A DNA stretch of 60,114 nucleotides, counting the filler, from Hausera hauseri (taxonomy: Eukaryota), in the NCBI GenBank assembly GCA_046269625.1. It is 11 parts of 11 records of this genome, joined end to end, with 100 filler letters (N's around TTAATTAATTAA, not from the genome) between each part and the next. Parts side by side here need not be neighbours in the genome. Positions count along the whole stretch, not along the records: positions 14,381 to 20,601 come from JBJURY010123651.1; positions 20,702 to 24,650 come from JBJURY010864520.1; 9 more parts are not named here. One strand, given 5' to 3'. A program made the position numbers and the translations under genes. This document shows, one piece after another, positions 9,295 to 42,399 of the stretch (position 1 is the stretch's first letter; every line of letters starts with the position of its first letter). The notes under the pieces are model-generated. The model was not told the DNA's origin. It saw nothing but the letters and a program-made list of their open reading frames with translations, and did no database searches.

Positions 9295-12200
9295 CCAGTT
9301 TCAATGTTATTTCTTTCATGGACTTTCTATCATCAGGGTATATCTTCATCGACATAATCATAATTATTCGAATAACGTGTGTGAGGCATGTTAACCGATC
9401 AAGCCTTTCCTTTAATACACGTCCTGTCACATCAAATGATAAACCTTCTGGTTTTTTCTTATGTGGAAATATCGACCAGTCCTATGAATTATTTATTTCT
9501 TTGCGAGAATTTGTCCACCTTCTTTCGCAATCACCCGCAACGTCTAATGATTCTTTTGATTCAAATTTGGATTGCATTTTTATTATCGTTTTATTAACGT
9601 CCTTTTCGATATCTCCCAAAAGTTCAGGCTTGCAATTTTCATGATTTATCCCCTTTGAATTTACTTTTCTCCTTGATTTCTTTTCGGTAATTTGTGACTT
9701 TTCTTGTTTTCCATTCAAGGAAGACGATTTTGAATGTGTTGTTGTAGTATCTTTCTTTAACTTATTATTTTTACTTTCTTGATTTATACCATCACTTGAA
9801 AATCCTTGTTTCTTTGATACACATGACATTAATGTTTGTGATGGATCCCTTGATTGAGCCGAACCACTACATTTTGATTGATCTACTTGGGACAATTTTA
9901 TGTTGTCGATCAAAGATAATATTGATTCTCCTTTTCCTTTCGGAATCTGAACTTCTTGAATTTGAAACTTCCTCGATCCAACTTTGTAATCGGTTTCTGT
10001 TGATCTATTAACAACTAATCTGAATTCCTTTTGGTACCGTTGTTCTAACTCCCATAATCTATTTCCACTCTTGTGCGTTTCTTCTGCCCGAATCCAAAAG
10101 GATCTTATGAAATTGCTATTTGTTTTTCTTTCCTTTTCTTAACTTACCTCCGCATGTCCATCCCAATGGAGTAAAGCGTGCCACCGGATCTCCCAGCCTA
10201 CCATATACTTCCTTTATTGCACAGTGGAGTTCTATATAGTTGGCTCCGATAATACCATCTACCTCTAATGTATGGGACATTGTAGTAAACCTTAAATTCT
10301 TTAGATGGGGCCACTTTTGTTTTTCAGTAGACCAGTTTACTGCCTTCATCTTTCCGGTTGGACTCTTCATTGTCAATGCATCGAACTGAACATCTATTGA
10401 ACGGTCCATGCTTAGCAATTCCATTTTCACCCTGTCTACCATCATTTTGATTTTTCTCCCTCCAACAACCGTCACCTTCTGACTTTCTGTCTTCTTATCA
10501 ATACCTAATTTATTACATAGATTCGAGTTGATGAAGCTTTCTGTGCTTGCATTGTTTAGCAGCATTATTGCTTTTCTCATTTTATTCCCATTTTTTAACA
10601 ACACTGTCACTGTTCACAGTGCTATCAATTCTTCTTCGTTTTTTTGGCTTTGGTAACTCTTGGTTGGCTTGGCCATTGATCTTCCGTATTCTGGAGAAAT
10701 TCCGGGCCATTCCACCACTCTGTTTTACTTTGGAGTTCCTCGATACCTAACTTTCTCGATAGGTAGTCTGCCGGGTATTGTTCCGACTTCACGTAGTACC
10801 ATTGCCTTCCAACTGACTCCTCCTGAATATATCCAACTCTATTCGCAACGAACGTTTTATAATTTTTGCTACACCCTTTAATCCAATATAGCACATTCAT
10901 ACTGTCCGTCCAGTATCGTATCTCATCCTTACTCTTACCTAAATTCCTTCCCACTTTCTTTCCCAATTTAATTTCTATGCAAGCCGCCATCATCTCCAGC
11001 CTAGGTATAGCGACGGACTTTACTGGCGTCACATTGCCTTTTGAACATATAATCACCACTTGAATTTTCTCTTTTACAATCGACCTCAAGTAAGCAACCG
11101 CCCCATATCCCCATCTTAAGGCGTCATAAAATATGTGTATTTTACTGCTTCCGTCTTCTTGAAACTGTAGATTCCTCAAAATTTCAATTATACTTAATCT
11201 CTCCATTCCCTTCACCAATGTTTTTATCTTCTCGTTCAAATCCTCCGGAACTTTCTCATCCCAATCTACATCCATTTTCCACAGTTTTTGTAAGTACATC
11301 TTGCCTAACAACGTATAACAATTAAGAAAACCCAGCGGATCGAAAACCTTTGCCAGAACACTCAACAATGTCCTTTTCGTTATTTCCAAACCTTGCTTAT
11401 CTCTATCTTCAAATTCGAATTCATCATCTTCAACCCTCCACTTCATACCTAACGTTTTGGTAACTACTTCCGTCTTTTCCACTATATTGAATTCTTTTGC
11501 TCGACTTGAAATGGGTATTAAATTTATCAACTCGTCAGAATTCGACACCCATTTATGAGGTTCCATTCCAGCTGTTTTCCAAATCTCGTTTAATTTGTTA
11601 TACACAGATACAGCTTCCTTTTCAGTACTGACTGAGTCGATGCAGTCATCCATATACGTAGAACATTCAATTGTTTCTACAGCTCTTGGGTATTTATCCT
11701 TAAACTTTTCGGCATTATATCTTGAAATTAACTGCGCCAAAAACGGGGAAGCATTCAAACAGAATACCAACCAGTTGAACTTATACGTCTTGAGTCATCC
11801 ATCCTTATACCATAGGAATCTCAAGTATTTCCTATCTTCTGGCTTTACCTTAATTCGCAAAAACATTTCTTGAATATCACATATTACTAACCATTGACGT
11901 TTTCTCATTCTCAGTAGTATATCCACAATGTCCAGTTGCAATTTTGGACAAGGTTCTAGAAAGTCATTTAGACATTTTCCCCGATATTTCGAAGTGGCGT
12001 CGAAAACTATTCAACATTTTGTGGTTTCCCTGTCAATTTTCATTACAGGGAAATGTGGTAAGAGCCAAGCCGATTACCGTTCCTCATGCTCTTCAACCAC
12101 TCGAATATATATTTTTTCAGTATGGGCTTTTATTACCTTATCATAGGCCATCTTAGCCTTTTTATCCTTACCCAACTTATTCCTTAGAATATTTAGTCGT

Positions 12201-14280
12201 TTAAGCACCAACCATTCATTTGTTTCGATCTCAGGTCGTCTTCCCTCTTTCGAGAGTAATGGTACGCAATACCTACCTTCTTCGTAGGTCCTGTCTTCCA
12301 ATATCTGTCCTATGATCTCCTCTTCTTGTAAGCTTCTTTCGGACACTTTTGAGTCAAAGTTGAACTCAATCACCCACAATAGGTTCAAGTCGTTTTGGAT
12401 CTCTTCGGCTGTAGACCAGAAGGTCTTCACAAAATTACTATTTATATTCTTCTTTCCCTTCTTTATCAAACCCACACAGGTCCAGCCCAAGGGGCTTAAC
12501 CGTGCCACTGGTTCACCTTTTTTGTCACAGACCTCCTCGATTGACTGGTGTAGCTCTATATAATTCGCCACTATGATGCCATCCACTTGCAACTTGCGGG
12601 GTATTATGGTGAATTTCAGATTCCTTAGATAAGGCCATCTTTGCTTCTTATAAACCAGTTCACGGCTCTCATCCTCCCAGTTGGATTTTTCATGGCCAAC
12701 GCCTCGAATTTAATATCTATCGATTGGTCTATACTTATCAATTCCATTGTTACTCTGTCAATAGACAGTTTTGTTTTTTCCCCGACAACGGTTACCGTCA
12801 GTCTCTCCGTTTTCCTATCAACGTTTAATTCGTCGCATACCTTTAAATCAATGAAACTTTCCGTGCTTGCATCGTCTAACAACATTATTGTCTTTTGTCC
12901 TTTCGTTCCTTTTTTCAGCGACACTTCCACTGTCCTCAGAGCTGCGACCTCTTCTTCCTCATTTATCTTCTGAAAGCCTTGAGTTACATAGGTCCTAACA
13001 TCCTTTTGCTGATTCTCGACCTGTCCTCTGTCTTTCTCCTTTAACGCGCCGAGCAACGACACCTCTGGGTCTTCATCCGCTATTCTTTCATAAGGCTTTC
13101 TGACTTCATGCTCCAGTCTATTTCTGTTACCATTGCTGTTATCATTATCTTTTTTGCCAACATTTTTGTGTTGGAACTTACAGTTATTTCCATACCTACA
13201 TCTTCCTTTTCAAAGTAAAAACATATCCTTTCCTCATCGTGTCTACTAGATTCGTGAGAATATTTGCAGTTATCCCCGAATTTATATTGTTTATTTTCGT
13301 CATAGTTCCAACATCTTTGGAACCGAGCTCCTAGCTCTGTATTGGGTTGACTGATTTGTGTCCACCTTTTGTCATCTTTATCCTTTTTTTAATTGTAACT
13401 TTCGAACTCTCCCTTTTCTGTCTGCGCTTTCTTTGTGAAGTATGATGGTTCATCTCCTACTGTCGCATATCGGCCACTTTGATCCATATTACACGTTTCT
13501 ATTCCTCTTACTCTTTTAATGACGTTTCTCCTGACCATCGCTTCCTTCTCCACCCAATTTTTCAATTCTTCAACGGTTTTGTCTAACTTCTTCTCTATGA
13601 CATTTCTTTCCCATAGTAATACAATTGACTCTGGGAGTTTCTTAATAAGGTTATGATACTACAAAACTCCACCAAGTTCTACTGTTCTCCCTAGATTTTT
13701 CAACCTTACTATTATACCTTCTAACAACGCCACGAACTCATCCAGCCCGATGATGTCTCCTTCTTTTGTCGTCTGGAACTTTATAACATCGGTCATAAAC
13801 GTCGCATAGGAACGCTATTCTCCACCATAGTAAGTGTCCAATTTTTCCATGGATGCTCTGTATGCTTCTTCTGAAAGATCGAAATTTTCGACCAGTTTTT
13901 TCGACTCCCTATACAAATATTGATTTAACTGTAGTTGTTTATATATGCCCGACATTGAAGTTTTGTGGATACACGTGTCAAAATTCCTTCTCCATTTATT
14001 GTATTCTTTAACTATTCCCAAACTTCGGCAACTCGAATTTTTGTAACTTTGGCGGGATTACCCTTTCATTTCTTTCCTCATCCGATCTTCCGTTGATGGT
14101 CATCATTTTATTTTCTCTTGAAGTACTTTCATAGATGATCGCGTTGATTTTTTCATTCTGATCATCTAACTTCTCCATATCGTTTTCCAGTAACGTGATG
14201 TTCTCCTTCTTCTTCAACTTTCTTGCCGCGGTAGCCAATACACACAGCTCCCCTTGAAGTTCGTTGTAAGCTTTGTCGTA
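9295..14280 (-). mobile_element. Decayed BEL/Pao LTR retrotransposon (gag-PR-RT-RH, then a second PR region; no integrase seen)
   Basis: Gag PKLQKFELPKF / W..FDTCIH; PR LLDDASTESFI and PVARLSPLGW; RT YMDD; Pao RNase H/peptidase A17 region (TKRTLLSVLAKVFDPLG, IPRLEMMAA, WTDS, FVANRV, PADYLSR, WWNGPEFL). Confidence 0.92.
10625..11770 (-). pseudogene. BEL/Pao pol fragment (RT C-terminus + RNase H)
   Basis: 381-aa ORF with YMDD and Pao-specific motifs. Confidence 0.9.
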
Positions 14281-15420: not shown

Positions 15421-16885
15421 TCAATTCATGAGTAAATCCGTGAAGGAACCAAATTCCATCAAATAATTCTGTACTTCATTATGTTCATCATAAAATCGAT
15501 AATTCGTGCCTACCGATTCTAACTGGACATCGGACTTCATATCGTAATTCAAACTCATTCCACTGTCGTTATCCATTTTAATTTCCTTCTTCATTGAAAC
15601 GTTCTTAGCCAAGACCGGTTCCAATTTCATCGATTCTTCTTCTTTAACTTTTCTAGGCCGACCTTTCTTCTTCGGCTCAATGTCAGCGATTAAAATTTCG
15701 CCTTTTCTCGGTCTTCCACGCTTCTTCTTTTCAACAATAGTATGCTCAGATTTCACATGGATAACATTGATCGTGTCACAGATTCTCGGTCGACCACGTC
15801 GTTTCGGTGTGATGTCCACCAATCGTTCATCGGGTTTGACATCATAGATCTTTTCATAGTTTTCAATACCCTTATGGCCACATTCATGTTTCGCCAATGC
15901 AATTTCGGAATTGGTTCGGAAAACACAATTGGAATGTCGGCAAAATAGTCGACATCCTTCATCATTGGTTTGATGTTTGTACCTTTTATCGGCATGATCG
16001 AATGCCACGTGCTCATCTCGCCTGTATTCGTCGTCGAATAGTATTTCACAATAGCGGCAGACAAAACGGCGATTGATTCTCGAATCGTGGACTTTAGATA
16101 AGTGGGAATTAAATTTTGTCTTGTCTGTGAATAGCTCAGGATTATCGACACAAAATGGGCAAAGGAAACTGTTTCGATGTTCTTTAACGTGGTTTTCTAA
16201 CTCGTTGAAATCGAATGCGATCCGATTGTAACAATACTGACAAGCGAATGGCAAATTCGCAGTAAAACAATTATTGCAGGAGACTTCAACATGATTGATT
16301 ATTGACTCCATGGAGTCCAGAATAACACCGCATACCATGCACTGGTACATGACCTACAATCATCAATTTAAACAAAGCAGAATTTATCGGAATGCCAACC
16401 TTGTACATTGCAGCAATTCTATCGGCAATGTAGTGTTCTCGCGTTTCCAAATGTGACAAATAAGTGTCGAACGAGTTGAACTGTTTATCGCAAATTTTAC
16501 AGCCGAACTTCTCGTCCTTCAGAATATGTCTGTGATAATGTGTTTTCATGTTTGACTTTTGTGTGAATCGTTTTTCACAAATAGTGCATGAGTATGGTTT
16601 AATATTAGCGTGGGATCGCCAATGATGCTTCATTAACCCGCCGTTGTCCGTTTTGTAACTGCAGAAGAATAAAGGACATTTCCATTTGCATTGTTTTTTC
16701 AAATTTCGATCCTGCTTTGGATGGATTTCTCGTGCATGAAGGAACAGCGCTCCGAGTTCGCTGAATACCATTGGGCATTTGCCACAGACGCTGACAACAT
16801 CTTTGTGTACTTTTTTCATGTGTTTCTTCAATGGTTCCCCCCGGTTGAATGTTTCTGAACACTTTGAACAGTTGTATTCGACCAT
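15421..16885 (-). CDS. C2H2 zinc-finger protein with three AT-hooks; two exons (16885-16400, 16353-15421)
   Basis: Multiple CxxC..H..H fingers incl. KPYSCTICEKRFTQKSNMKTH; AT-hooks RRGRPR, KRGRPRK, KKGRPRK. A 46-nt GT..TAG intron at 16399-16354 joins the two track ORFs in frame (AMYK|VMYQC). Confidence 0.88.
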
Positions 16886-19219
16886 TTTGAAATTTCTTTT
16901 CAATCGATATTACGAGCATATTTAAACAAAAATTATTAAAACAAATTTGGGCAGTGTTGGTCGATTGATTTTATGTTACCCATTGAAATTTTATTTTGTT
17001 GTCTTTGTTACTCAATATTCAAACAACTTTGTAAATTTGGTAATGTCTATATTGATTTAGTAATCATGGGGATTGGCTGTATGATTTGGTAAATAATATA
17101 CATCCCTGATCATAGAATTTTTCACACCATTTTCAACTCCCTTTGCAGCTTGATTGTATTTACAAAATTTAAGACCAAAAAGAACGGCTGAATCCCATTT
17201 TGAAACATAAGGCACATATTAATTTGACTATAAAATGGAACCCAATTAAAATTAGTTGTACAAGTACAGAATTTTATAATAATCAATAATTAATAATTGG
17301 CAATTGTATAGTATCCTCCGTTTCGAACAAGTATTCTTATACATTCCTAATAGTTCTGCGGCCTTAATGCAACATAGATTTCTTTCACCCTCGAGTGCAT
17401 CAACACACTCATAATGCCATTTTGATGAAATTCATCATCAAATAGACGATGCCGTCACTTTTTGGTTAATATAGGAAAGTCTTAATGACGTTTTCATATT
17501 GTGGTGGGGAAATGAAACAAGTGCCTGATATTTTTTTTCCAAAAACTTTCATAAATATCATAAACATTTTAATTTTACAAACTAATTTTCATTAACATAT
17601 CAGTTTTGTATGGAAATTCAGCGGTCCATAAATAATTTCACAAATATAAGTAAATTTAATAATATAAAGAATGTCTAAATTTTACTTAAATTTGTGAAAT
17701 TGTTGTCAATTTTAATTTGTCAACAAATTTTGAAGATTTCAAACTGTCCTGTCCATTAGCGTTACGATTCATTTTGGATTGAATATATCTCGAGATGGAA
17801 CTAGGATAGGATATTGTCTTGGTTAATATTTGAATAGGAACTCGTAAATTGATATGAGGGTTTTATTTAATGCCGGTTTGGTCCTCTGTGATCGAATTAG
17901 TAACGTTAGTATCGTAATCTTTGATAAGTAATTTCTTTAATTGAATAATAACAATCGTCATAGTAACAATTGCTGAAGGTGCGTCATCGAAATGAGAATT
18001 TCTGATGACTAATTATTATTGTGTTTGATAATGGTGATAACAGCTTATATACTGTCTACGGATAAAAATATGCGTCGTACGTGGAGATTCAAACAAGGTT
18101 GATAATTTTGAATTCCATTTTTCTGGTCGTGTGTGGGTTTTCATTTCTGGCTGACTTTTCGGGAAATCGCGGCGAATTCATATCGTTTTGAATTTCGGCG
18201 TATGATTGACGGTTGGTATTTTAAATTTGAAATGCTACCGTTCATTTCTGTTATAGCTGGAATTTATGATTTTGTGCGCTTGTACTTTTAAGTAATTAAT
18301 TAAAATAGTGTTTGATTTTATTTGTGTTCGGTTTCGATTTAACTATTTAATTTGAATTATGTAATATATCGTATTGGTACTTGTGTATTTCGTCTTTTAC
18401 TTTGAATATTAATTATTTAATTATTATTTTGCCGCCCTGGATAGCAATATTTGTGTAGAATGCAGTAATGGTGATGACACCCATCAGATGGTTTAACAAA
18501 ATTAGACAAGACGACGTTTAAATGTATATACAAGGTTTATTATTTATACAGAAATATTTGCAATCATGTCACATGTTCACAATATTAAATTGTTACAAAT
18601 TAAATATCATTGTCAATTTTCTCCAATGTTTGAAAGTCTCTGGAACATTTGGAGTTCGGTCTTTGACTCGGTTTGATATGATAATGAGAATTTTGATTTG
18701 AATTGGAATTTTGAATTATCTGGATATTTTGGGCTGTTTTATTTAACGAACTCTGAAACCAATATGATATTCTGATGTTAATTATTTGTAATAATATAAT
18801 ACATATAGAGTATTTCGTTAACATATTCAGTGAGCATTATGATTACTACATTTGAATTCAAAATTTTAGATCAATATGTATTAGATATACAATCTTTATT
18901 GATTCTCTTCAATATCAACTTGTTTTATTTTTTAAACTATATGGCGGCATTACGTTTTAAAAAATAACAAATTAAAGTAAAAATAAAATAAACACCTTTA
19001 ATATAATGTCCAACACAGTTCAAAACAATACGATCAGAGTTCAACGTTTTAAAATTGTAAGTTTGAATTTACCCGTATGAAATATGTTAACAGAAAATGG
19101 ATTAAAATTTGTTAGGCGAAGTGCTGAAAATATTTCAAGCTAAAAAGTTCATGGATTGTTTGAGATCAATAGTGATTGAAACTGACTGAATTCTTTCATT
19201 AACATTATTATCGGTAATG

Positions 19220-19475: not shown

Positions 19476-20761
19476 TACGATGCACTATATGCATGTGCAA
19501 TTAGAATTTAAATCGATCGAGTGGATTTAGAATAATATGGATCCAAAGTGCAACTGGTGCAGACTTCCCATAGTTTTTTTAGGTCTCAAGGAGTCAAAAT
19601 TTGATACAAAATTTAGCGGGAACAGACAGGAAGTGTCACATTGTAACCCGGATCTTCCATCTCAGATTTCCGAAATTCGGTGCACAACTCGAATAAATAT
19701 TGATTTTCACCGAATAGTATCGATTATCTTGACATCTATAAATTTTTTTGAGAAATCTGACAACGCTAATCGATTCCCCATGTTTCCGTGCATCTATATA
19801 GCACTTTACAGATGTTTCGCAAATGTGTAGTGTGCTTTAATGAATAATAACGGTTTCCCGATAAAACGTTTGAAGTTGATTTTAGCACACAAGCAAATGA
19901 AGATCAAAAAATGTAAAAGAGCACACACATAGAAACTAACATGTGCTCTATCCGATTATGACACCAGATATCCGAAAACTCGAATACAAGTCGAACTTTT
20001 CGAATAATTGATATTCTATTCGAATAGAAATAAAAATCGAAAAATCTAAAAGCGTGGAGAGATAGAAACCCATATATGGAGAATCCGAATATAACGTCAG
20101 ATATTTGAAAAGGGGCTTAAATAAAAAAGCAGATTTTCCGATCGAATTTGAATATTTGAATATGACCATCGGATTCCGCACGTCCAAAAACCTTTGTAGA
20201 CCAAAAATTGGGTGTGCAAAGTGTTTCGAACAGTCACGAAATGAATGAAACATTGAGAAATTCGATAATATTTCGTCCAGAAGAAATTATTGGAATAATC
20301 TGATGACGCCATTTAATTGCTCATGTATGAAAATCTTGTTCAAATTTTAAATATGGGGCTATGAAATGTATGCAGTTGATGCATTAAAACAAAATGTTTT
20401 AGAATATTTGAAATACGATATATATTGCCTTGTTTACCTCGCTATATACGTTTATTTATACGTTCTTGTTGGCGTATATCTTAGCATTCTGACGTTTAGT
20501 GACTTTTTCTCAACGGTCTGGACCTGACGTTGGTGGGGGAACATACCATTCTTTACTTATCTTCCTGCCAAAGACAACTTCTGCTGGGCTCACCCCAGTT
20601 GNNNNNNNNNNNNNNNNNNNNNNNNNNNNNNNNNNNNNNNNNNNNTTAATTAATTAANNNNNNNNNNNNNNNNNNNNNNNNNNNNNNNNNNNNNNNNNNN
20701 NCTCCCGGAAAAATTTCATTCTCTCAACATTTATGACATTACGGGAAAGTTTCAGATCAAA

Positions 20762-21727
20762 ATGAAAAATAGTAAAACCAACCAGCAGGAAGACCTAATC
20801 AATCTGGACCCGAATCAAGGTATGTCACTGTCATACCAGATAGTAAAGAAGAATATACTGAAGATACGAACACTAACTAGCCGCATCATGCTCGGAGTGG
20901 AACTAATCAAATCAGAACCAGTATGGAAAACGCCCCCTCAAGGAAAATGCTTCAACTTAATAGAGCCCGATTATCTGAAATATGTTGACAAACCCTATCG
21001 ACGGGTTTCGCACATTTCTGAGGAAGATATCGTTATAACCGCAGTCAATTTGGCCTATGATCAGAACAATCAGCTCACCCCCATAGAATGCTCCGTAATA
21101 AACCTGCAAGGAGATGTTTTGTTTTACACAATGATTACCCCTCGGCAAAGGATCAATAACTTTGATTCACACATTACCGGACTCACAGAAGGAAATATTA
21201 ATAATCAAATGGACGCTAATGTATTCTATCAGAAAATCTCCGCCGTCCTTAATGATAAGTTAGTGGTTGGAGCCGGAGTTTTGGAGATGCTACGGAAACA
21301 TCTCCTTTGTCCGTTACGCCGAATTATGGGTGTACGTGATGTATTACATCACGAAGACATAATTCGGACGTACAAATTAGAAGCAAAAACATATAAGGAG
21401 TTGGCTAAGAAGTTTTACGAGATGAAAGGAATGCCACTCCGCAGTATGGCATTGGTACAATGTTACCATGCCCTCTACAAAACCTTACGATGGGACGATG
21501 ACATAATAGATGAAACGACGGCCTCCGATAGGGTCCTAACAAGACCAAAAGAACCTTCATCAAAGAGAAGAAGAATCGAAATAGAAGAAGAAATATTAGT
21601 GGATGGCGAAATTTACGTTCCTGATGGCCTTCGATACAAGTCTCCTTCTGGAAAAACCATCTTTCGATCTATGGCGTTAATTAATGAAAATTCGGGGCAA
21701 TCTTCTTCGAACCCCCATCGGAATTGA
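20762..21727 (+). CDS. DEDDh/REX4-like exonuclease-fold protein lacking catalytic residues (retroelement accessory ORF); frame is open back to the contig start at 20702
   Basis: IECSVINLQGDVLFYTMITPRQRINNFDSHITGLT...LNDKLVVG...VRD matches the REX4/REX1 pattern; ExoI DxE is replaced by AVNLA; homologous to 39441-40649. Confidence 0.75.
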   Translation: MKNSKTNQQEDLINLDPNQGMSLSYQIVKKNILKIRTLTSRIMLGVELIKSEPVWKTPPQGKCFNLIEPDYLKYVDKPYRRVSHISEEDIVITAVNLAYDQNNQLTPIECSVINLQGDVLFYTMITPRQRINNFDSHITGLTEGNINNQMDANVFYQKISAVLNDKLVVGAGVLEMLRKHLLCPLRRIMGVRDVLHHEDIIRTYKLEAKTYKELAKKFYEMKGMPLRSMALVQCYHALYKTLRWDDDIIDETTASDRVLTRPKEPSSKRRRIEIEEEILVDGEIYVPDGLRYKSPSGKTIFRSMALINENSGQSSSNPHRN

Positions 21728-21930
21728 TCAGTCCACCAGCTAAATGAAAAATAAATAATGACAAAATGAAAAGCAAATAACAACAATGTTACCCAGTCAA
21801 TTTCCAGACACAAATCTAAATGAAAAAGAAATCATAATAACGTTAAAACAATAAAATGCAATTACCTAATCCATTATCTGACTGATTGATATTCGCTCTT
21901 ACCCATTATCCAACTGGACCTCAATATTAT

Positions 21931-22542
21931 TGTAATAACTGACATATTTACCTGGTGAAATGATTTATTTATTTAATGTAATGGCCTAAGTGTAGGCAAG
22001 TATAAATATTGTACATTTTTGTGGTAAATTCATAACTGAAAAACAGTTCTGACGACTTCATTCTTTGAACTCTACTACTTGACGATTACGTAAGTGTTTG
22101 CTGTTCTAAGATTTTTATTTGAAACGTTTGGTAACCGTTTGTTTTATTCTTTTATGGTTATTCATTTTTGTGAAATAGTATTTAATAGATTATATTCTTC
22201 GTATCCTTATCATTCTATTGTATTCAATAATCTAAGTAATTAATTAACTCTTCAATAATTGGTTCAAAGCCGTCCAGGTCTACCCTACCTGACGGCGTCC
22301 TGTTTAATACTAAGTAATTTTAGAGTCAATTAAACCTTAGTAAGTAATTATTTAATATCCGCCTTCGAGGCCACACCGACCGCACACATCACCTATAGGA
22401 TAGTGATAGGTAAGGTCCTTGTACCTGTCTTACCCACATATACCACTCAAACAATATAACCCGAACCATCTATTGTTCTCTTCACTAATTTGAACAAAGC
22501 TTTATTAAGTCTCTCCCCATTCAAATTGGTGCAGATTGAACA
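21931..22542 (+). mobile_element. Putative 3' LTR following the pseudo-exonuclease ORF
   Basis: TGTAAT start candidate, TATAAATA (~22001), TCATT initiator (~22058), GTAAGT donor (~22090), ends TTGGTGCAGATTGAACA. No clear PPT and no second copy to confirm. Confidence 0.35.
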
Positions 22543-25161
22543 ATTAATTTGTCATTAAAATACAGTTGTATGATGTTAATCACGTGTCTTTGTATTGGAT
22601 AGTATTAACATATCGGGTATAGATTTCAAGGTCGATGTGGCACCCTTTCAACTTATCCTATCACACTGGAATTTTGTACTTTTTAGCTTCTAATTACAAA
22701 GAACAAAATTAGAGGGTAAGACTTTTACATTTTGAAGAAAAAATTTTTGGACCACCCTGATATATATATATATATATACATTTTAAAAGGTTGGGTGAAT
22801 AAGATATGTGGATATATATACATATTGATAACGGGCGGGTAAATTGACGGTGCACATTATTTTATTTTGAATAGTAACATTTATTTATGACATAGTTGAA
22901 CCAGCCTTTCCACGACATTGTGACACAATTTTAGTTCAGATTCATCCCAATTTTGTGCGCTATTCACAATAAGGTACACGAAATCTGTATTGGTAAGATG
23001 AGATAATAAATCCAATTGATAAGTAACATTTCTTGATATGTCGATTAGACAGGATTGATTGTTATCCATTTTAACAAGGAACTCGGAAGAATTCTATCTT
23101 TCTGAAAAATCGTTGGGGAATATTCACGGATTTCTGTATTTAAAATAGTTGCCAAATAAAATAAAGTTATTTAACAATTCGGAATCGACGGCTTTTGATA
23201 TTAAAGAATTCGTTCTCGATGTAATTTGACATTGCAAAAAACTAAACTTTGTTTCATTTTTGATATCTTGATATGAGAAATCAGTTTCCTTAAAGTTGGA
23301 TGCTGTCGACCTCCGAATACTTTCGACAAAATTACTTCTTTCTTTAATGAATGTGGTATTTTGAAAGAGGTTAATTTATTTTTCTTTTCTCAAATTGATG
23401 ATTGTAACTCCTTTAATAAAGCACCTGTGCTGACATCTTCTAATTTTTTTACAAAATAGCTTACTTGAAAACTTATCGCCAACATTAAATAATTTATTAG
23501 TTCTATTAGATGATTTGGAAAACTTTGAAATGGTTTCTCTTGTAAACATCTGAAGTTCACAATGAAAAGGTTATTTGTTCATATTTTTGTTTTTGGTTCC
23601 TTCTGGAGAGAAATGTGAACATTTGGTTGTTTTAAATTGACCAGTTTTGTCTTTATTACAGGTTTTCTTCCTGATCTGTCTGGAGCCAAATCTCTAAAAA
23701 CGAGCATTATGCTGCCACCTCCGTGCTTTAGCATAAGGATGATAGCAGGGAGAGACAAAGTTCATAACTCGTTTGTTCAAGCCACATGACTGTGTCCTGC
23801 TCATCATCATGTCTTACGAGGACAATTATTTCTGCTGCACAGCATGATTTCCCCGCATGCAATAGAGTCAGACAGCACATAATTCTTATAAAAATATCAC
23901 AAGAAGTTTCTGTATGTTTTAAATGAGAAAAACATTGTTGACAAAGCTAAATATTTTTAAAAAGTTTAAATTCCCCAATACCATAAGTCACAGAAGGAAT
24001 GTCCTGAATGAGCCGAACGTTTTGATATATGAATTGTTGAAATAGAACAAAAATTGTGGAATGAGATTAGTGCCGAAAAATGTACAGAAGAAATCAGGTT
24101 ATGTTTAATCTCCCCATGGAGCAATTTGTGTTACAGCTAGCAGGAATTGAAAACATTCATCAACAATAAATACCATAAAAACTATCATGGTATAGGCATA
24201 TCTACTACATATCTACTAACACACACACACAACACTCAGCAAGAAGTATTTAAAAGGATGATAACAAAAATTAATTTTATGTACAACTTAAATACAAGGC
24301 GTAACAAATTTTACAATAAATAATACTACAAAATACCCGACAACTACTGCTGAGATAATTCAATTATCTCTAACAAATCTCGAACAATTCAACGTTTGAT
24401 AAGGAAATAATTACAAACACGCACGGCTAGCTAACACTAACACTAATTTTCTTTGACTTGCAAGTACCAGAATTTTGATTTTGTTGATATTACTGTAGTT
24501 TTGTATAAATGCATCACATGGCTGTTTTCTGGTTTTTAATATCGCTATTGTATTTTGTATCTTGGTTCAGTGTTTACTAGTTTCCATCTTTCTCCAGGTT
24601 AAAGCTTTCAGATTTTTCTGTCCAGATATTTAGTCCTTCCTGCCAGCTTTNNNNNNNNNNNNNNNNNNNNNNNNNNNNNNNNNNNNNNNNNNNNTTAATT
24701 AATTAANNNNNNNNNNNNNNNNNNNNNNNNNNNNNNNNNNNNNNNNNNNNTTCGAATATAACTTTATAAATATAAAGCGCGTAAAGACAGACGGCCAGAA
24801 CAATAGAAAAGACTGACTAGTTAGATCTTTTAGTTTCTTTCTATGTATTTACTTTTATATTTTAGTTAACATTTCTATATTATTTGCCACATACATTTCT
24901 TATGTCTATCATCCCAAGTGTATGTTGGGATTCATACTTAATAAAGATTACCTATTGTTATTGAGGTGTGTTCTTTCATACATGTTATACGTATGTTGTT
25001 CTTGTTATAGATAATTAGTTGTATTATTCCAGGAACTCTGATCTTAATAACTAATCCAGGAGATCACCCAGGGAACCAACATATCGCGAAAAGAAAAAGC
25101 TACCACTATAGATAGGAGGATATACTAAGATCCAAGAAACCCTCTGACATACCATTAGATT

Positions 25162-25226: not shown

Positions 25227-25655
25227 TAATCCTATAGGGGGAAAGTTCGAATAGGACTGGCACACCGAAAAGGATTAAGCAAGGAACCTGGAGATTAGAA
25301 ACATTGAGACTTCAAGAGAGAAAACTTAGTTATAATAGGGTTGACATACAGGTGTAGGGCATTGAATGTTTTGGAGATTGTTTTAGTACACAGGGTGTCA
25401 CTATATTTTTTTGTTGCATTGGCACTGATGATAAAAAATTTATTTCAGGTGTATTTGGTATTGACTGCAGGTGAAGTACTAACATATTTTTTTTTCAGGA
25501 ACATTGTAGACGCAATTTTTTCAGGTTAAGTGCTCGATTGGGCACGGAAGGAAAATTAGTTTGTTCTACTAGGGGAAGTTTCACAAATAATAATAAAGAT
25601 ATTGTTTTGGGCTGGAAAGATTAACCTCTAACGGGTAGGTAACGTAATTACAATA

Positions 25656-26822
25656 ATGGAACGAACAATGCAACAGGCACTAAATATACCACTACCTGAG
25701 GACATACAACAGACACAATATACAATAGAACAGCAGATACAACTCCTTCAGCAAGAACTACAACATGCACATCAGCAAATGCAGCAGGCAGAACAAAAAC
25801 TACAGTTAGCACAACATCATATACAACAAACCACACAACAGAATGAAAGTTCAGTACAAACAGCACTCAATACTCTAGGACACATGGTAGAAAAGTTAGA
25901 TTGTAATAGCCGCCAACAAAACATAAGGGCATTTGTGGATACATATAGGGGCGACCCAAAACACTTTAGAGTCTGGATAGCACAGGTCGAGAAATTCGTT
26001 TTCCTTTTAAAAGGGACTTCGGTAGACTACAAAAACGTGGCATTTATTTCGGCAGATGGTTTTGTCTCGGACTTTTTGAAAAGAAGATTAGAAAGTCACC
26101 CGAATGAGACTTGGGCAGAACTAAAGAAGGAACTAGCGCAGAGATATGCCGATATAACCGACCCACAATATGCAGTGTCAATGCTGCGAAAGATAAAACA
26201 GGAACGTTCTGAAGGAATTCAAATTTATGCTGACAAATTATTGAATGTAGCTGAACAAGCCTTCATTTGCCAGGGACCACCACAAGAAGAACAAAATAAA
26301 ACTTTGATACCGATTTTTATAGATGGGTTATACAGCACGAAGATGAGGCTGAAATTAATGAGAGAAAACCCAGAGGATTTTTACAAAGCTGTGCAAATCG
26401 CCATAGATGAGGAGAATCTTATGCGAAGATTTAATTTGAGACTGGGGATAAATAGTCAGGAGGAACGGACGGAACGTATGGAAGTAGACCATAGTAGACC
26501 CAGGTGGAGGAGGAATGACCGCCCTCCAGAACATAGAGCTAGGCAGAATTACCAAGGGAACCCAAACCGACCCGTACAGGCTGTAGCTAGGGATGTTGAC
26601 CGGTGCGCCAGGTGTGGAATAGGGGGTCATAGTGCGAGAGAATGTACTCACCCGATCCAATCGCGCGGCCAAAAGCTATGCTATCGATGTAACCGGCCCG
26701 GACATTTTGCACGAGATTGTTCCGATAACTGGGTAGGTGAAACTCAGAACTATAGGGGAAGGGGGTTACCGAATACCGCTAGAAACTCGAGGGACCAGGG
26801 AAACGGATCCACGGCTCAGTAA
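25656..26822 (+). CDS. gag: Gag (N-terminal Gln-rich coiled coil, capsid, two CCHC knuckles)
   Basis: CARCGIGGHSAREC and CYRCNRPGHFARDC; FIDGL; MEVD. Confidence 0.95.
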   Translation: MERTMQQALNIPLPEDIQQTQYTIEQQIQLLQQELQHAHQQMQQAEQKLQLAQHHIQQTTQQNESSVQTALNTLGHMVEKLDCNSRQQNIRAFVDTYRGDPKHFRVWIAQVEKFVFLLKGTSVDYKNVAFISADGFVSDFLKRRLESHPNETWAELKKELAQRYADITDPQYAVSMLRKIKQERSEGIQIYADKLLNVAEQAFICQGPPQEEQNKTLIPIFIDGLYSTKMRLKLMRENPEDFYKAVQIAIDEENLMRRFNLRLGINSQEERTERMEVDHSRPRWRRNDRPPEHRARQNYQGNPNRPVQAVARDVDRCARCGIGGHSARECTHPIQSRGQKLCYRCNRPGHFARDCSDNWVGETQNYRGRGLPNTARNSRDQGNGSTAQ

Positions 26823-26861
26823 AGGGTTCATACTGGAGCGGAAAGGAATATCACAGGACCC
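26798..26861 (+). promoter_or_regulatory. -1 programmed ribosomal frameshift signal (G_GGA_AAC + putative pseudoknot)
   Basis: Heptamer at 26798-26804 in the gag frame; -1 frame is open into pol; stems GCTCAGTA/TACTGGAGC and GGGTTC/GGACCC. Confidence 0.75.
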
Positions 26862-26887
26862 AAAAAGACGAGAGTAAAGAAGGGGAA

Positions 26888-29800
26888 TTGGGGAGAGGTA
26901 GGAAGCAAAAAGAGAGACCGTACCAAGTTAACTTAGCCGAAGATCCCAGCTCATGCATAGTTGAGATAGGTCGAAGAAGGGTAAGATCGCTGGTAGATAG
27001 CGGAGCGGAAATCTCGTTGATTAAGGAATCCCTATACCGTTCACTGAAGAATAAAGGGAATTGGTTTAGCAGAAAGGCAAACCTCCAATCAGTGTCAGGA
27101 GAACCATTGAAGGTAACGGGATCAACCAACCTTTGGATTAGGATAGGAAAAACAGAGTTAGAACATCCGTTCTTTATTGTCAAGAACATGAACCGAGGGA
27201 TGATTCTAGGAAGAGACTTTCTCAAGAAAAATGGAGTAAGGCTTTACTTCGATTTACAAAAACTGAGGATAGGGCAGGAATATGTTGATCTTCAGGATGA
27301 TATTCACATCGCTTCAGTGTTAAGAGTGGGCAAGAAAACGGTACTAAAACCAAACTCGGTGAACATAATAATGGGTAAATTGAGGAAGACTCCCTATTTT
27401 AGAGAAGGGCAGACAGTAGGAACAATTGAGATAGAAGGCGACATTATTAACGAACCCGGTCTGATAGTAACCGAGGGAATAGCCACAATAAGAAGAAATT
27501 TAGATATACCGGTCATGATTATGAATAGCACTCAAAAGACAGTCGCTTTACACACGGGATGTGTTATCAGCCGAGTAGTGAAATCAAACGAAGTGATTGG
27601 ACAGGAAGTAATGGGGGAATCCCCCGGGCGAAACTCCATCACGGAGGGGAAAATAGATCAAGCTCCCAGTACAGGTAGGGATAATAAAAATATGTGTCGT
27701 AACGAGCGGTTCTCGAATAGGGACAAGAAAGGGTACGGAAACCGCCAAGTTAGAACAATTGGTGAAACTAGAATTGGAAAAAGGGACCACCCTAAGGAAA
27801 ATAATGGTAGGGAGAAACTGAAGGAATTAGATCCTCGGAGTGGAGATAGAATACAAGAGTTATTAAGTCAGTTAAAGACGGAAGGTGAATGCAGAGGTAT
27901 GATGGAAGACTTTGTCAAAAGGCATGCGGATGTATTTGCCTTAAACGATTTAGAACTGGGTCGGACCCAGACAGTGACTATGGAAATTGACACAGGGGAC
28001 CATCCTCCCATCAGCCTGAAACCGTATAGGACTCCGCTGAAAAATAGGGAAATCGTGGAGAAAGCCATCGAGGACATGTTGGAGGCAGGGATTATAGAAA
28101 GAGTGAGGTCAGAGTGGTCATCGCCTGTGGTCATCGTCACAAAGGCTGATGGCGGACATCGTTTTTGTGTTGATTATCGTGGGCTGAACGGCGTTTCGGC
28201 GGATGTTTCTTATGAGATGCCGCATATAGAATACGTATTGGCTCTCCTCAATAAATCCGATTTCTTCACGACTTTAGATGCGAGAAGTGGATTTTGGTGC
28301 ATTCCGATGTCGGAGGAAGCAAAACGGAAAACCGCGTTCTGTACACATGTAGGTAGCTTTGCCTGGAACGTTATGCCGTTCGGACTAAAAGGATCACCTG
28401 CCACCTACATGAGTCTTATGGATAGAGTTTTGGAGGGTATGCAAAAATTCGCACTTGCATACATTGATGACATTTTGATCCATACCTCTGGAACTATAGA
28501 AGAACATTTGAGACACGTGGAGATGGTGTTCAATAGACTTAGGGAACACTCCATAAAATTGAAACTAAGCAAATGTGAATTTGCAAAGAGAGAGACCAAA
28601 TATCTCGGTTTTATTATCGGACGAAATGGGATCAAACCAGACGGTGATAAAGTCAAAGCCATCCGACAAATGCCGGCTCCTAAGACTGTAAAACAGGTGA
28701 GGGGATTCATCGGTACCTGTGGGTACTACCGTAGGTTCATCCCAAATTTCTCACAGATCGCAGAGCCACTTATAGCTCTCACGAGAAAATATGCTAAGTT
28801 CAAATGGGATGATGATTGTCAGCACGCGTTCGACTACTTGAAAGATAGTCTTACAAGGATTCCCTTGTTAGCTCATCCCGATCTCAGTAAAGGATTCATT
28901 CTGTACTGCGACGCGTCAGACCGATCCATAGGAGCAATCCTAGTCCAAGAGGGAGACGAGGGTGATGAGGGCATCATGCCGGGCACGAAAAATGAAAAAC
29001 CGATTTATTTTTTGTCCCACAAATTAAGTCCATCTCAACAAAAGTGGGGGACAACCGAAAAGGAAGCATACGCTATCTACTACGCGGTGCAGAAACTCAA
29101 TTTCTATTTGCATAATGCAAGCTTTGTGATCAAAAGTGATCACAAACCTCTAAAGAACTGGCTGAAAACAGGGGTACAAAACCGAAGGATTCAAACGTGG
29201 GTTCTAAACCTACAAGGGTACAGTGCACGCATAGAATATATCCCTGGGCCAGAAAATACATGTGCGGACTTGCTATCTAGGATCCCATACCCGGAAGTAA
29301 AGGCCGAAGAAGAAGAAAATGATAGCATGCCGGAGATCGATGACCGGACGTGGGGAATAAATGTAATAAACTCGGACAGACCTCACTTATATGACATGGA
29401 GAGCAACCATGATCAGGGAGGCGAAAGTCCCGAGTCAGAGGATCAAATGGGGATGGAAGGGGATATGAGAGTGGAGCAGGAGAGAGACGAGAACATAAAA
29501 CAGATAAAAGTAGATCTGAAATCTGGGACAGAAGAGGCTCGAAGTAAATGGAAACATTTCATTGTTTTAGCGGATGATGACGAGGTGTATCGAATAGCCA
29601 AGGACGAAGGGAGGCTCCAGAAATACATACCCAACCACCTAAGAGCAAGAGTATTACGGCAGTTCCATGACGAGAACGGACATATGGCTAGAGATAGGAC
29701 TTACGGGGTGATCTCGAAAAGGTACTACTGGCCGAACTTATATAAAGAAGTGATCGAATACGTAGGGCAGTGCGAAGTGTGTAAACTGAGAAACATGAAA

Positions 29801-33603: not shown

Positions 33604-33677
33604 GCTTAATTATTTGCGGTTGTAGATCAGTGATGTGTGGAAATTATAGGGGGCGGCGTTTCTTTTGAACATACCTG
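33604..33677 (-). mobile_element. Tc1/mariner-type TIR inserted at TA in polB
   Basis: Minus strand TA|CAGGTATGTTCAAAAGAAACG; polB similarity stops exactly here. Confidence 0.5.
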
Positions 33678-38514: not shown

Positions 38515-39440
38515 TCTGAGTTCGCATTTGACTGAGTTTCTCGGAAATTCGTCTCCAATTCATAGCAGTAATGGGGTTTTATCCGAACCACACGAGTGTA
38601 ACTACCGTTCGAAAAGTACTTCAGTTCAGTAGCTTCGGCTCTACACACCGGGCAGGTGGTTTTGCCGTTATCTAAGGTCCATTTCTCTAAGCAATCTCGG
38701 CAATATTTGTGTCGACAATCACGGTTATCCAATATAACGTATCCTTGACCGAGGTTCGCCTGGCATACGGGACATTCACTTTCCTCTTTATCCCACTTTT
38801 CATCATTTAGATCCACTCTTATTATGAGCTCTATAGGTTTAAATATGAGACCATCCTTGTCTTGGTATAGGTATCCGTGGATTCTTTTTTGTTCATGGTT
38901 CACAGAACTCTTTTTAGGATCACAGCCTACTGTCACTAGGATCCAATCTGCGATAGTATCTCGATCTAAGTCGGGAACTTCGCCATCCGTTTTATATTTC
39001 TGATACTGCTTTTTCAATAAAGCTTTCATTTGCTTATCCACGGGTAGTGTTAGCTTGCCGTTTCTTTTCAATCGAAATACTGGTGCAATATACTTTCCTA
39101 TTTTAGGGTTTTCCCAAATATAGGTGTTTTCATGTACTTCTCGTGCTGGTGTAGTCTTAATAAAAAACATCGCTTCTTTGATGGTTTGTCGACTATAGTG
39201 TTCGGTAGTTATTGGCATCTTAGGATAGTCTTTAGCGGTCGCAAAATGCATATTCTCTCGGGAATTCTTGTTTCTGAGGATGTTAACCTCCGTAAACAGT
39301 TGTTGGAATCCACTTTCAGCGCTCGTAAGTTTTCTAGGTATCTCTGGGATTGTAATCTGATTATCTGCGGACGTTGTGGGGATTTCTCTTGTTGAACTTT
39401 CGGGTCCTTTATTCACTTCATTGATTCGGTTCTCTTGAGC
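38515..39440 (-). CDS. RING-finger (C3HC4) protein, in frame with the upstream exonuclease ORF; 3' end cut by contig edge
   Basis: CPVC...DCRHKYCRDCLEKW...TCPVCR; only the TAA at 39443-39441 separates it from 39441-40649. Confidence 0.8.
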
Positions 39441-40649
39441 TTAATTTGAGCTTGTCTCTTTGTTTTTCTTTTGGAATAAGTAATCAGTGAATATACATTT
39501 CCTCTTAATCGGGGAATTTCGCGTTTCATCCCTTTCCTGTTGCGGTGGTACTTTGAATGTCTGGATTGCTTCTTTTTCCTTAATTGTAGATTTTAGTTCT
39601 GGAATTGGTTTAACGCGGGAATTGTAACTGGTGCTGGGCCTGTCGGCACTCGATTGATCTGATTTCCAAATGGTTATTTTGATATTGTTTTGCCCCATTG
39701 GTTCCGCGACTCTACATGGTAAATATGAACGATATTGCTTCCGATGCTTTTTATTGATAAGTTCTGGGTCGGATGTGTTTCGTAAATTTTGTTCTGGGTT
39801 ACTAGGTGTCCACTCATGGTCCCATTTTAACGCTACATAAATATCGCGTAGGTATTGAGTGCGTTGACTTGCGGTTAAAAATTTACTAATCTTAACATGT
39901 TTGCTATTTATGGCGTCTACCATCAATTTGAAATAGGCGTCAATAACCTTTGGTATAGGGTAATTTCTCTCTCGTAATATTCGTTTACTTTGTTCGGCGA
40001 CTACTGGATGTGTCCCTATTTCGCGCATTCCTGTGATGCTTGTTATGGGTATTTCCAAGAGTTCGATAATACTATCGATACGATATCCAGTTACGATGTA
40101 ACCATATAAACAATGCTCTAACTCGGCCTGAACAAGTTTGATGTCTTTACCTCTTGGACATGTCTCCTTACGAATTCCTGTCATATTGTAGTGGGTCTCA
40201 AAAACGCGTTTTCTTGGGCTAATAATCGTACAGTGTACTTCTGTTCCGTTTGTTTCTCGAACGGAGACTTCGATGGGAATCATTTTCACGTCATCCCCTT
40301 CTCCACAATTGATCGCTATGATTCGAGTATTTCTGGCGTCTTGCACTAATCTATACGATCGTAAGAATTTGTCCAAATCTTTTTCTGACGGTTTCTGATA
40401 GAATTCCAGGGACGGCAGTTTGATGTAAGGAGGATCGGCATATGTGACTTCGAACATTAATTTTATGGGGAGGGCGGCTACTCTGAATTCTAATTCATAA
40501 TTCTGTAAATCTTGGCTGCAGAGACTGAGAATACTGAACCTGTATTGTCTTCCGCTGCTGGTGTTCCATTCTTGGTCTTTGAACCGGTAGTATATCTCGC
40601 CATCTGCCAGGTGAATATAAATGTTCTGGTGAGTTTCGTATGTGATCAT
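39441..40649 (-). CDS. DEDDh/REX4-like pseudo-exonuclease
   Basis: IIAINCGE (cf. AIDCEM), PIEVSV, TIISPRKRV, MTGI, VQAELEHCLYGYIVTG, MREI. Confidence 0.75.
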   Translation of the reverse strand: MITYETHQNIYIHLADGEIYYRFKDQEWNTSSGRQYRFSILSLCSQDLQNYELEFRVAALPIKLMFEVTYADPPYIKLPSLEFYQKPSEKDLDKFLRSYRLVQDARNTRIIAINCGEGDDVKMIPIEVSVRETNGTEVHCTIISPRKRVFETHYNMTGIRKETCPRGKDIKLVQAELEHCLYGYIVTGYRIDSIIELLEIPITSITGMREIGTHPVVAEQSKRILRERNYPIPKVIDAYFKLMVDAINSKHVKISKFLTASQRTQYLRDIYVALKWDHEWTPSNPEQNLRNTSDPELINKKHRKQYRSYLPCRVAEPMGQNNIKITIWKSDQSSADRPSTSYNSRVKPIPELKSTIKEKEAIQTFKVPPQQERDETRNSPIKRKCIFTDYLFQKKNKETSSN

Positions 40650-41118
40650 TTGTTTGAGTGAATACGCTTAGGCATCCTTGTCTTCTCTCATGGCGTAAAG
40701 ATAAATAATCTTATTTTCTTCGGTTATACCCTTTAAGTTATTAGGAATTCTACTGGTCCGATTATACTTCACGAAGGTTCTATCATGTGATTCGTTGTTA
40801 ATTTCTCGAAATATCGATTTAGAATTTGGGAGAAAAACAGTGGCGTAGTTCTGTAAGAATTCGTCGATACTAAGTCGACGTTTTGACGATTCATCGATAC
40901 TACATCGTTCTCATCCTTGGGTAAATCGCGATCCGTCGATCCTAGGTCGTCCGGCATCCGTTTTCGTAATTCTCTCTGATCATCGGTCTAAAAAATAAAC
41001 AGTAATGGTTAATCTTACAGCACAGAATGGTTTTAAAATGAAACCAATTCTTGGTTTGGTGAAAGAATAACCCAATCTGTAATTGTCAAGTTATTTTATC
41101 GTAGACGTATTTTTGGGG

Positions 41119-42399
41119 TTACCATACCCTTAATTCCCGTTTTACGATTTTAGAGCGCTTAGTATGACAATTTACGTCAATTAATCGAAATATCGCGATA
41201 CATATTATAAGCACAAGCGTTGACAAACTTACACTCAGTATTATAGTCAGTGTACTCAACTTCTCAGATTCCGTAATCGTTGCTCTTGTTGTAGTCTCTG
41301 GTCTTGTGTTTTTGTCTACTTGGGGTGCTATTCGTATTTCTTCCTATGTTTGTATTGTGAAAGTTTGGCTCTGTGCATCTTTTGCATGTATTTGTATTAT
41401 GTATTCTGTTTTAGGTATGAGTGAATCACATTCGGTGTGATATGTGTTCTTGTGCAGTGTAGTTTTTATATGCTGGTACACAGTGCGGCAATTTATCTCA
41501 ACATCGTAGCTGAGCTTCTCTTCCACTGAGAAGACTATTTTACGTGATTGTCTCCAGTATTTTACAGGAATCCTGAGTAATTTTCCTTTACTCGTTTTCT
41601 GAGTTATAGTAATTTCGGAAGTGGTACTTATCGGAACGATTTGTCTCGTTGAAGTTGTTTCGACTGCAGTGTTCCAGATCCTGCTGTCTGGGTGATATCG
41701 TCCTAAGTAAGTACTCGACTTATTTTGCTGAATTCCATAGAGGTCAAAATGAATCCTATATTCATGACCTTCTTAAATTTTACAACATGTGCTAAGATCT
41801 TCAATTTTTAGACTGCAATATTTAGGCATTGAGCTTAACTCCTTTATTTTTGTGAATAGAACTGAAATCTCTTGTCTACTTTGTAGTCTTCCTTTCGTGA
41901 TTATTTGGATGCATTTGTCTTGCTTGTTTTCTGAAATAGTAACTATGTCTCCGAGTTCCGTTGTGTTCCCTCGCTCTTTAGCGGGTATGACCAACTTTAC
42001 TTGTGACCTTATTACTCCTTGTATACGTTCGTACATTCTGTAATACATTCGTATTGTGAAGGTGTAAGTGTCTCCATAATTCACGACACAACAATTTTCT
42101 TAAGCTCCATACGGAAAATTACAATAGGTCATTACTCGTTGTTTCGCATTCAATATGACTACTTGATATCTCACTGATTTTCTAACGGGTCCGTCCGTCT
42201 TAAATGACATGCAGTCTCGTTTGGAATCTATGCATTGGACCTTAAAACGGTCCAAGGTACTTAAGTCGTTTCTTTTTGTCATTATCAATTCATTCTTTAT
42301 TCATTTATTTAGTTGCTGAATTAGTCCTCCTTGAGCGCTTGCTCTAGGAACATATGAGGCTATTAATGATAGTGCTAAGACTATCTGTATATAGGACAT
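41119..42399 (-). pseudogene. Type-I membrane protein in the env position (signal peptide, Cys/FN3-like repeats, Thr-rich stalk, TM), four premature stops
   Basis: One reading frame continuous with integrase; MSYIQIVLALSLIASYVPRASA signal; DSLIPKTEYIIQIHA; TM LTIILSVSLSTLVLIICIAIF followed by a basic tail. Confidence 0.7.

Follow-up and report, generated by a model that had tools for sequence, protein, structure and literature searches.

The window analysed here is a stretch of 60,114 nucleotides from Hausera hauseri (assembly GCA_046269625.1), and its subject is an intronless, 5'-truncated open reading frame (ORF) of 341 amino acids at 20702..21727 on the + strand, referred to below as ORF A. 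Its product is predicted to carry an exonuclease fold of the ISG20/REX4 type that has lost all five DEDDh catalytic residues, preceded by part of a double-stranded beta-helix. This N-terminal beta-helix domain defines the protein family. It was absent from the original prediction, a note made from the sequence that presented ORF A and a second copy in the same window (copy B) as retroelement-borne dead DEDDh proteins. We regard it as an even call that ORF A encodes a non-catalytic adaptor and serves as accessory gene to a Ty3/Gypsy-like long terminal repeat (LTR) retroelement of an invertebrate.

At the stop frequency of its contig, an open frame of 341 codons has a chance of about 1e-11. The window consists of 11 unlinked contigs, each 3.9-8.8 kb, joined by 10 identical artificial 100-base linkers (N44-TTAATTAATTAA-N44). 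One of these occupies 20602..20701, and base 1 of the contig that follows it directly is the first base of ORF A. Because the contig begins inside the gene, ORF A has neither a start nor upstream DNA. One close, full-length relative, P0001, is an unbroken ORF of 447 amino acids with 60% identity, and ORF A corresponds to its residues 120-439. Amino acids 1-72 of ORF A (20702..20917, +) form the C-terminal half of the beta-helix (AlkB-like/cupin) domain, matched by the family N-domain profile at E 2e-8; the contig edge cuts off the first half. The DEDDh fold spans amino acids 109-267 (21026..21502, +), and a basic KRRR cluster, in sequence a possible nuclear signal, is followed by a small beta-rich tail module (21563..21676, +). 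The module is common to P0001 and the catalytically complete P0013, where it recurs at E 1.7e-4 among 43 tails, the best reversed control being 0.47.

The claimed homology between ORF A and copy B is well supported. BLASTP against the copy B frame at 39444-40667 (-) finds 43 of 182 residues identical (24%, E 4e-9), and the local score of 108, versus 38 +/- 6 for shuffles, was reached by none of 500 shuffled sequences. The resemblance noted earlier between the C-terminus of ORF A and the segment before the RING finger of copy B does not hold up: its local score of 25 is equalled by 267 of 500 shuffles, two-sequence profiles give no reciprocal match and the hhalign probability is 0.6%.

The DEDDh fold claimed for ORF A is recovered by both profile searches and structure prediction. 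ORF A matches PF00929 at E 0.0064 (17.5 bits, below the curated cut-off of 24 bits) and alone gives weak matches to ISG20L2 (E 0.023) and ISG20 (E 0.025), while a three-sequence profile of ORF A, copy B and P0001 matches ISG20L2 at E 4e-7. The ESM Atlas returns RNase_T clusters for ORF A at 0.91-0.93 and nothing for the N-domain. The structure model was generated with AlphaFold2 for P0001, which is 63-65% identical to ORF A in the nuclease domain, using 52 aligned sequences; its mean predicted local distance difference test score (pLDDT) is 87. Residues 228-386 of this model superpose on ISG20 (1wlj) with Z 17.4 and a root-mean-square deviation (rmsd) of 2.5 over 155 aligned residues, and Foldseek agrees. 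By this model the domain is a DEDDh fold of the REX4/ISG20 type, itself an RNase H-like DEDD fold.

The five catalytic residues of DEDDh enzymes are D, E, D, H and D (described in part of PMC10899777). In an alignment to canonical REX4-like sequences, ORF A has Ala114, Asn116, Met196, Leu246 and Leu251 at these positions, the ExoII and ExoIII columns being less certain than ExoI, and all five catalytic residues are lost. Copy B has A, N, I, L and R, the first two being A112 and N114. The alignment bears out the statement that both copies lack the ExoI Glu and the ExoIII His and Asp. The Asn that had been placed at the first catalytic Asp was out of register by two: it stands at the ExoI Glu position (N116 in ORF A and N114 in copy B), with Ala in place of the first Asp. 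The same dead ExoI as in ORF A is present in P0001 and P0002, both unbroken ORFs.

The N-terminal domain is identified as a double-stranded beta-helix because two independent models match AlkB-type and cupin folds. In the P0001 model, residues 36-191 match ALKBH6 with Z 13.7 and rmsd 2.8 over 148 aligned residues, followed by ALKBH7 (Z 12.9), Ofd2 (12.1) and ALKBH5 (12.0), with Foldseek in agreement; cupins reach Z <=10 over ~99 residues. The second model, built from 17 sequences for the N-domain of P0022, a catalytically complete member (pLDDT 88), reaches Z 11.5 with both ALKBH6 and Ofd2, 123-126 residues being aligned (rmsd 3.0 for 126). For this domain Foldseek places cupins first by E-value and gives the best query TM-score to Ofd2, at 0.63 versus 0.34-0.47. 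Both models contain the double-stranded beta-helix core with an N-terminal extension that is seen in AlkB-type dioxygenases, and the modelled domain is probably of the AlkB/2-oxoglutarate type, which is favoured by coverage and TM-score.

With strands assigned via the secondary structure of the model, the iron ligands of AlkB-type enzymes are not conserved in this domain: HxD/E occurs in 2 of 49 rows and the seventh-strand His in 7 of 52, and the last strand has no conserved Arg of the RxxxxxR motif. As judged from the aligned sequences, the beta-helix domain is without metal ligands. Its conserved features are an IPN-LK motif, an Arg, a third-strand His (43/52) and a last-strand Glu (42/52); the His is a Tyr in ORF A and P0001. 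The N-domain gives nothing significant against PDB sequences, Pfam assigns no family to P0001, and the combination of AlkB-like and DEDDh domains is invisible to Pfam.

The family was defined by searching 1.84 billion representative proteins with the three-sequence profile, which gave 132 matches or, with ORF A and copy B, 134 rows. An N-domain profile covering the sequence that precedes the nuclease, built from members of the same set and iterated once, detects the domain in 60 of the 134 rows at E<1e-3 and in none of the canonical DCEM-type REX4-like matches at that threshold. Some of the remaining 74 rows are probably N-truncated family members, and the family appears eukaryotic. Among the 60 sequences with the N-domain, 29 have a complete nuclease site (18 D-E-E-H-D, 11 D-E-D-H-D), 23 are dead, ORF A and copy B included, and eight are too incomplete for scoring. 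With 29 intact-looking members to 23 dead ones, the dead proteins are therefore a branch, or branches, of a family of which about half looks active. A dead group thus exists as predicted, but the description of the whole family as dead fails, since D-E-D/E-H-D is intact in 29 of the 52 members whose domain is complete; catalytic residues in the family were a finding that the prediction had itself named beforehand as counting against it. PF00929 is matched at E<=0.1 by 19 of the 52 aligned members. The same search also returned a separate pseudo-nuclease group (P0009, P0042, P0045, P0046, P0068 and P0070), proteins of 478-804 amino acids that have two to four tandem REX4-like domains and lack the family N-domain; in several the active site is degenerate.

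Of the 23 dead members, whose mean pairwise identity is 23%, 20 have lost all five catalytic residues. Across these rows P147 and R148 are kept in 23/23, G137, D171 and G210 in 22/23, R212 in 21 and Y259 in 20. Selection on the fold is indicated because these structural residues are kept at 23% identity, and because ORF A and P0001 are 65% identical in the nuclease domain versus 42% in the tail. Read from these sequences, the dead group looks to be under selection, as had been proposed, and the unbroken frames of P0001 and P0002 agree with this.

Quick trees, those of the nuclease being rooted on 18 REX4-like sequences, place the dead rows inside the intact ones. With the catalytic columns included, all 23 dead rows fall on one branch (support 96). 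After removal of seven motif columns and four long-branch rows, 18 of 19 do so (support 83), and ORF A with P0001 is sister to copy B with P0002 (support 93). When only the N-domain is used (52 rows), the tree does not join ORF A and copy B, and because it needs six state changes, at least two of them forced, catalysis would have been lost more than once. The one-branch nuclease trees set against these six changes leave a single origin of the dead state not established.

The sole retroelement link obtained is the order integrase tail, env-position membrane ORF, copy B. Copy B is one frame (38515..40910, -) encoding a beta-helix domain, a dead DEDDh domain, a long tail and a RING finger (38640..38777, -; PF13639, E 1.6e-9). 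It contains in-frame stops at 40670-40668 and 39443-39441 (-) and is colinear with P0002, an unbroken protein of 870 amino acids to which it is 38% identical over 811 columns and which also has the RING finger. As a decayed copy, copy B therefore gives no support to the earlier argument from open frames; that support comes from P0001, P0002 and ORF A, for which the argument stands. A word-indexed search with copy B yielded none of 1,438 candidates.

Upstream of copy B, in the env position, lies a decayed membrane-protein ORF (41119..42399, -) with four internal in-frame stops. Its start resembles a signal peptide by eye (42399-42334), one segment is weakly fibronectin-III-like, and the end looks like a transmembrane segment. 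Its Pfam matches are below cut-off (PF00041 E 0.051, PF16656 E 0.006) and include no fusion-protein family, and its weak fibronectin-III-like matches do not make it a recognisable fusion protein. Between this ORF and copy B, a pyrimidine tract with AG (40988..41010, -), read from the sequence as a candidate splice acceptor, may serve copy B. P0001, P0002 and P0003 all start with Phe/Leu-rich runs, which could be a signal peptide or, equally, a translated splice-acceptor pyrimidine tract like that in the DNA before copy B.

At the contig edge (42586..42707, -), frameshifted motifs YDKK..GD.V and then KL-x5-GPY-x-V form what we take, from these motifs, to be a Ty3/Gypsy integrase C-terminus. Each pattern occurs once in the window versus 0.005 expected per shuffled window, the first having been written after the sequence was seen. 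This tail has no significant Pfam or PDB match, and tblastn with the window's own pol gives E 2.9. The integrase tail, the overlapping membrane ORF and copy B stand in order on one strand of one contig, within 1.8 kb. Retroelement genes are intronless, and the absence of introns from both ORF A and copy B was counted for a retroelement origin. The case for the proteins being retroelement-borne comes from one copy, copy B, and is at motif level, the Pfam matches not being significant.

An LTR is not confirmed in the region after ORF A, which had been called LTR-like. This non-coding 3' flank (21728..22600, +) contains AATAAA at 21750 and 21850 and TATAAA at 22001, its LTR status being unproven. 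No polypurine tract was found in 21728-23000 by a scan that did fire on the Gypsy contig of the window (contig 6), and the sequence recurs nowhere else in the window, contains no informative repeat and matches no Rfam family. An LTR needs a second copy, and the 3' end of copy B is cut by a contig edge. TGGTTC at ~22260, compared by eye with tRNA ends, does not look complementary to a tRNA 3' end, and no tRNA genes were found in the window.

From these observations we propose that ORF A would be the 3' three-quarters of an accessory gene in a Ty3/Gypsy-like LTR retroelement. Its protein, as model and alignment show, joins a beta-helix without metal ligands, probably of the AlkB/2-oxoglutarate-dioxygenase type, to an ISG20/REX4 fold without catalytic residues. 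The trees are consistent with a family that began when an active exonuclease was fused to a beta-helix domain, after which several lineages would have lost catalysis and kept the fold. The dead form would most likely act as a non-catalytic adaptor on the RNA-protein particle of the element, where it would bind RNA or a host RNA-decay protein via a family-specific surface. Interchangeable tails would complete the protein: a ubiquitin ligase of the RING type for copy B and P0002, and the basic cluster with the small beta module in ORF A.

Several results weigh against this account. Genomic context is known for one of the 60 members, copy B, by motifs alone, and ORF A has neither upstream DNA nor a confirmed LTR. 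Fusion to a retroelement domain is seen in 0/52 and 0/28 members, and when the N-domain profile was used to look for forms that are longer or fused, it retrieved four of 6,097 candidates, all of them seeds, which is weak evidence of absence. The RING finger is present in copy B and P0002 only. The search profile was made from dead proteins, and this makes residues in those proteins look more conserved. For the isolated P0022 N-domain, cupins tie with the AlkB type on Z (11.0-11.3 over 94-97 residues), and the N-domain profile has no sequence similarity to E. coli AlkB (hhalign 0.1%). The RNA contacts of ISG20L2 include R226 and W229 (given in part of PMC10899777), and these align with D155 and I158 of ORF A, residues that in this alignment weigh against canonical RNA-end binding. 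The nuclease domain of ORF A has a net charge of +1 versus a mean of +5.4 in REX4-like rows, the means for dead and intact rows being +1.6 and +0.3. With the RNA contacts not kept and the domain near neutral, any RNA binding would therefore go through a family-specific surface or the beta-helix domain.

Among the other explanations, there is a small chance that ORF A belongs to the host, either as an ordinary gene or as a domesticated copy that is no longer mobile. No polypurine tract or LTR pair was found after it, and it is unbroken while copy B and its neighbours are decayed. This must be set against the lack of introns in 1,023 nt of ORF A, the position of its sister copy B behind integrase-tail motifs, and the 77% difference between the two within one window, as expected of paralogues on different element families. 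It is very unlikely that the dead site arose by neutral decay and that this formerly active nuclease now has no function. Such decay would account for copy B being a pseudogene copy, for the long branches and lower mutual identity of the dead rows (23% vs 36%) and for the repeated state changes on the N-domain tree; it does not fit the identical ExoI replacements in the unbroken P0001, P0002 and ORF A, the retention of structural residues in rows that lack every catalytic one, or the confident P0001 model.

A relocated active site is known for some Maelstrom domains, and the conserved IPN-LK motif, His and Glu of the N-domain could point to an enzyme of this kind or to a beta-helix domain with its own chemistry. 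This is doubtful here: the conserved His is a Tyr in ORF A and P0001, the HxD/E and distal His ligands are rare across the family, and no acidic cluster takes the place of the lost nuclease residues. Equally slender is the case for a decoy that poisons host REXO4/ISG20/ERI-1-type nucleases through mimicry, as had been suggested earlier. The nearest solved folds are those of ISG20 and ISG20L2, and ISG20 without catalytic activity is still able to complex with RNA and YTHDF2 (reported in part of PMC7046284). Identity to those nucleases is however 15-22%, the best-kept residues of the dead rows (R148, D171, G210) are family-specific, being found in 5, 7 and <6 of 18 REX4-like sequences, half of the family looks active, and no result supports the idea, the R226 and W229 positions of ISG20L2 being D155 and I158 in ORF A. 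The least likely of these accounts is that the family travels on another mobile element or an endogenised virus, with copy B behind an integrase tail by chance. One context is known, the window holds other element types, and bdelloid DEDDy ORFs are common to unrelated retroelement classes (part of PMC5408684). Against it stand the consecutive, same-strand arrangement of integrase tail, membrane ORF and copy B, and the top 50 viral structure matches, none of which comes closer than a generic DEDDh or AlkB fold.

An extension of the adaptor proposal, which we think unlikely, is drawn from analogy. ISG20 is guided by YTHDF2, and inactive ISG20 remains associated with both RNA and this reader (part of PMC7046284). 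A disarmed AlkB-like domain might similarly read modified nucleotides (m6A, m1A) and steer an ISG20-like exonuclease, giving a single-chain, element-encoded version of the YTHDF2 and ISG20 pairing. The family would then be widespread among invertebrate LTR retroelements, and its dead branch would be the product of repeated conversion into an RNA clamp that does not cut, in some lineages armed with a RING finger that would remove host RNA-surveillance proteins. Evidence here for this modified-base reader is confined to the two folds, YTHDF2-guided ISG20 being an analogy.

Several known systems share parts of this architecture. ISG20, ISG20L2 and REXO4 (REX4-like DEDDh, PF00929) have the same fold and topology as the P0001 model and detectable sequence similarity (the profile match at E 4e-7). 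ORF A differs from them in lacking the five catalytic residues, in its fusion to a beta-helix domain and in the unkept R226 and W229 contacts, and 18 of its 29 active-looking relatives have Glu at ExoII. The AlkB dioxygenases ALKBH6, ALKBH7 and Ofd2 share the beta-helix and N-terminal extension over 123-148 aligned residues. Orchid Ty3/Gypsy elements carry an intact ALKBH5-like domain, a precedent for Gypsy capture of such a fold, which keeps HxD/E...H and RxxxxxR, neither conserved in the present family (part of PMC9289625). Bdelloid Juno and Vesta LTR retrotransposons and Terminons carry a DEDDy exonuclease ORF3, likewise a captured 3'-5' exonuclease added as an extra ORF after pol and showing a DEDD to DEED change like that of 18 of the 29 complete members here (part of PMC5408684). 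That ORF3 is RNase D-like DEDDy with intact residues and replaces env (same part of PMC5408684), whereas the present family is DEDDh, two-domain and often dead, and copy B follows a membrane-protein ORF.

Maelstrom, EXD1 and Exuperantia are pseudo-nucleases described as retaining RNA binding (part of PMC5408684). Like ORF A they have a DEDD fold without canonical catalysis, Exuperantia matching the P0001 model at Z 9.9; they differ in being host genes of other DEDD subfamilies with no beta-helix partner, and were compared by fold alone. The giant Burro Gypsy elements of planarians likewise carry RING, MATH/TRAF and other ubiquitin-related accessory domains, and the available part of their description mentions no exonuclease or AlkB-like domain (PMC6431247). 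The window itself includes, at 42876-44597, a contig start with an integrase-tail-like GPY segment (+; PF24626 SH3_Tf2-1, E 0.14) and, within 200 bases on the opposite strand, an intronless, unbroken TRAF gene of 462 amino acids (MATH, E 7e-36). This may be a further retroelement that has captured a TRAF gene, as Burro has. A term search of the main text of a metazoan errantivirus survey found no 'exonuclease', 'AlkB', 'fibronectin' or 'RING' (PMC13524379). Searches of open-access literature turned up no account of a retroelement protein with a beta-helix and a DEDDh domain, a prior record in supplements, repeat databases or subscription journals being possible.

Further ORFs in the window include the TRAF gene, C2H2 fingers and a Gypsy element; with the other element remains described below, they suggest that the DNA is from an invertebrate animal. 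The Gypsy element (25632-31759, +) has open gag and pol frames of Gypsy type, and its pol carries a 400-residue acidic, low-complexity tail after the integrase with a 57-nt tandem repeat (31297-31410). Two TGGTG motifs that resemble primer sites lie upstream, and there is a purine tract at ~32034. Because it is on a separate contig, divided from that of ORF A by an artificial linker (24651-24750), it is not linked to ORF A. Two decayed copies of one LTR-element pol (1424-3126 and 36437-38132) lie on different contigs, with 64% identity across 1,722 nt. Fragments at 33610-34576 (-) that resemble a broken protein-primed DNA polymerase B are presumably Polinton-like, and remains at 9482-13209 (-) with an internal duplication of ~550 nt (69% identity) are presumably Bel/Pao-like; these labels, and that of piggyBac-like remains elsewhere in the window, are assumed from motifs. 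Two adjoining C2H2 zinc-finger ORFs occupy 15421-16909 (-), one by eye with AT-hook-like GRPR repeats, and 4419-4973 holds an imperfect palindrome of 555 bp that is 67% self-complementary.

Among LTR elements, accessory ORFs derived from enzymes are already known; what sets this case apart is the two-domain architecture and the mixed active and dead membership, which are more interesting than the deadness itself. To our knowledge, extra domains are rarely fixed by LTR retroelements, and the effects of accessory genes on host RNA surveillance are largely open. In this family, active-looking and dead proteins form natural pairs that share one two-domain scaffold, and what is gained from an exonuclease, and why the protein is retained after catalysis is lost, are therefore directly testable.

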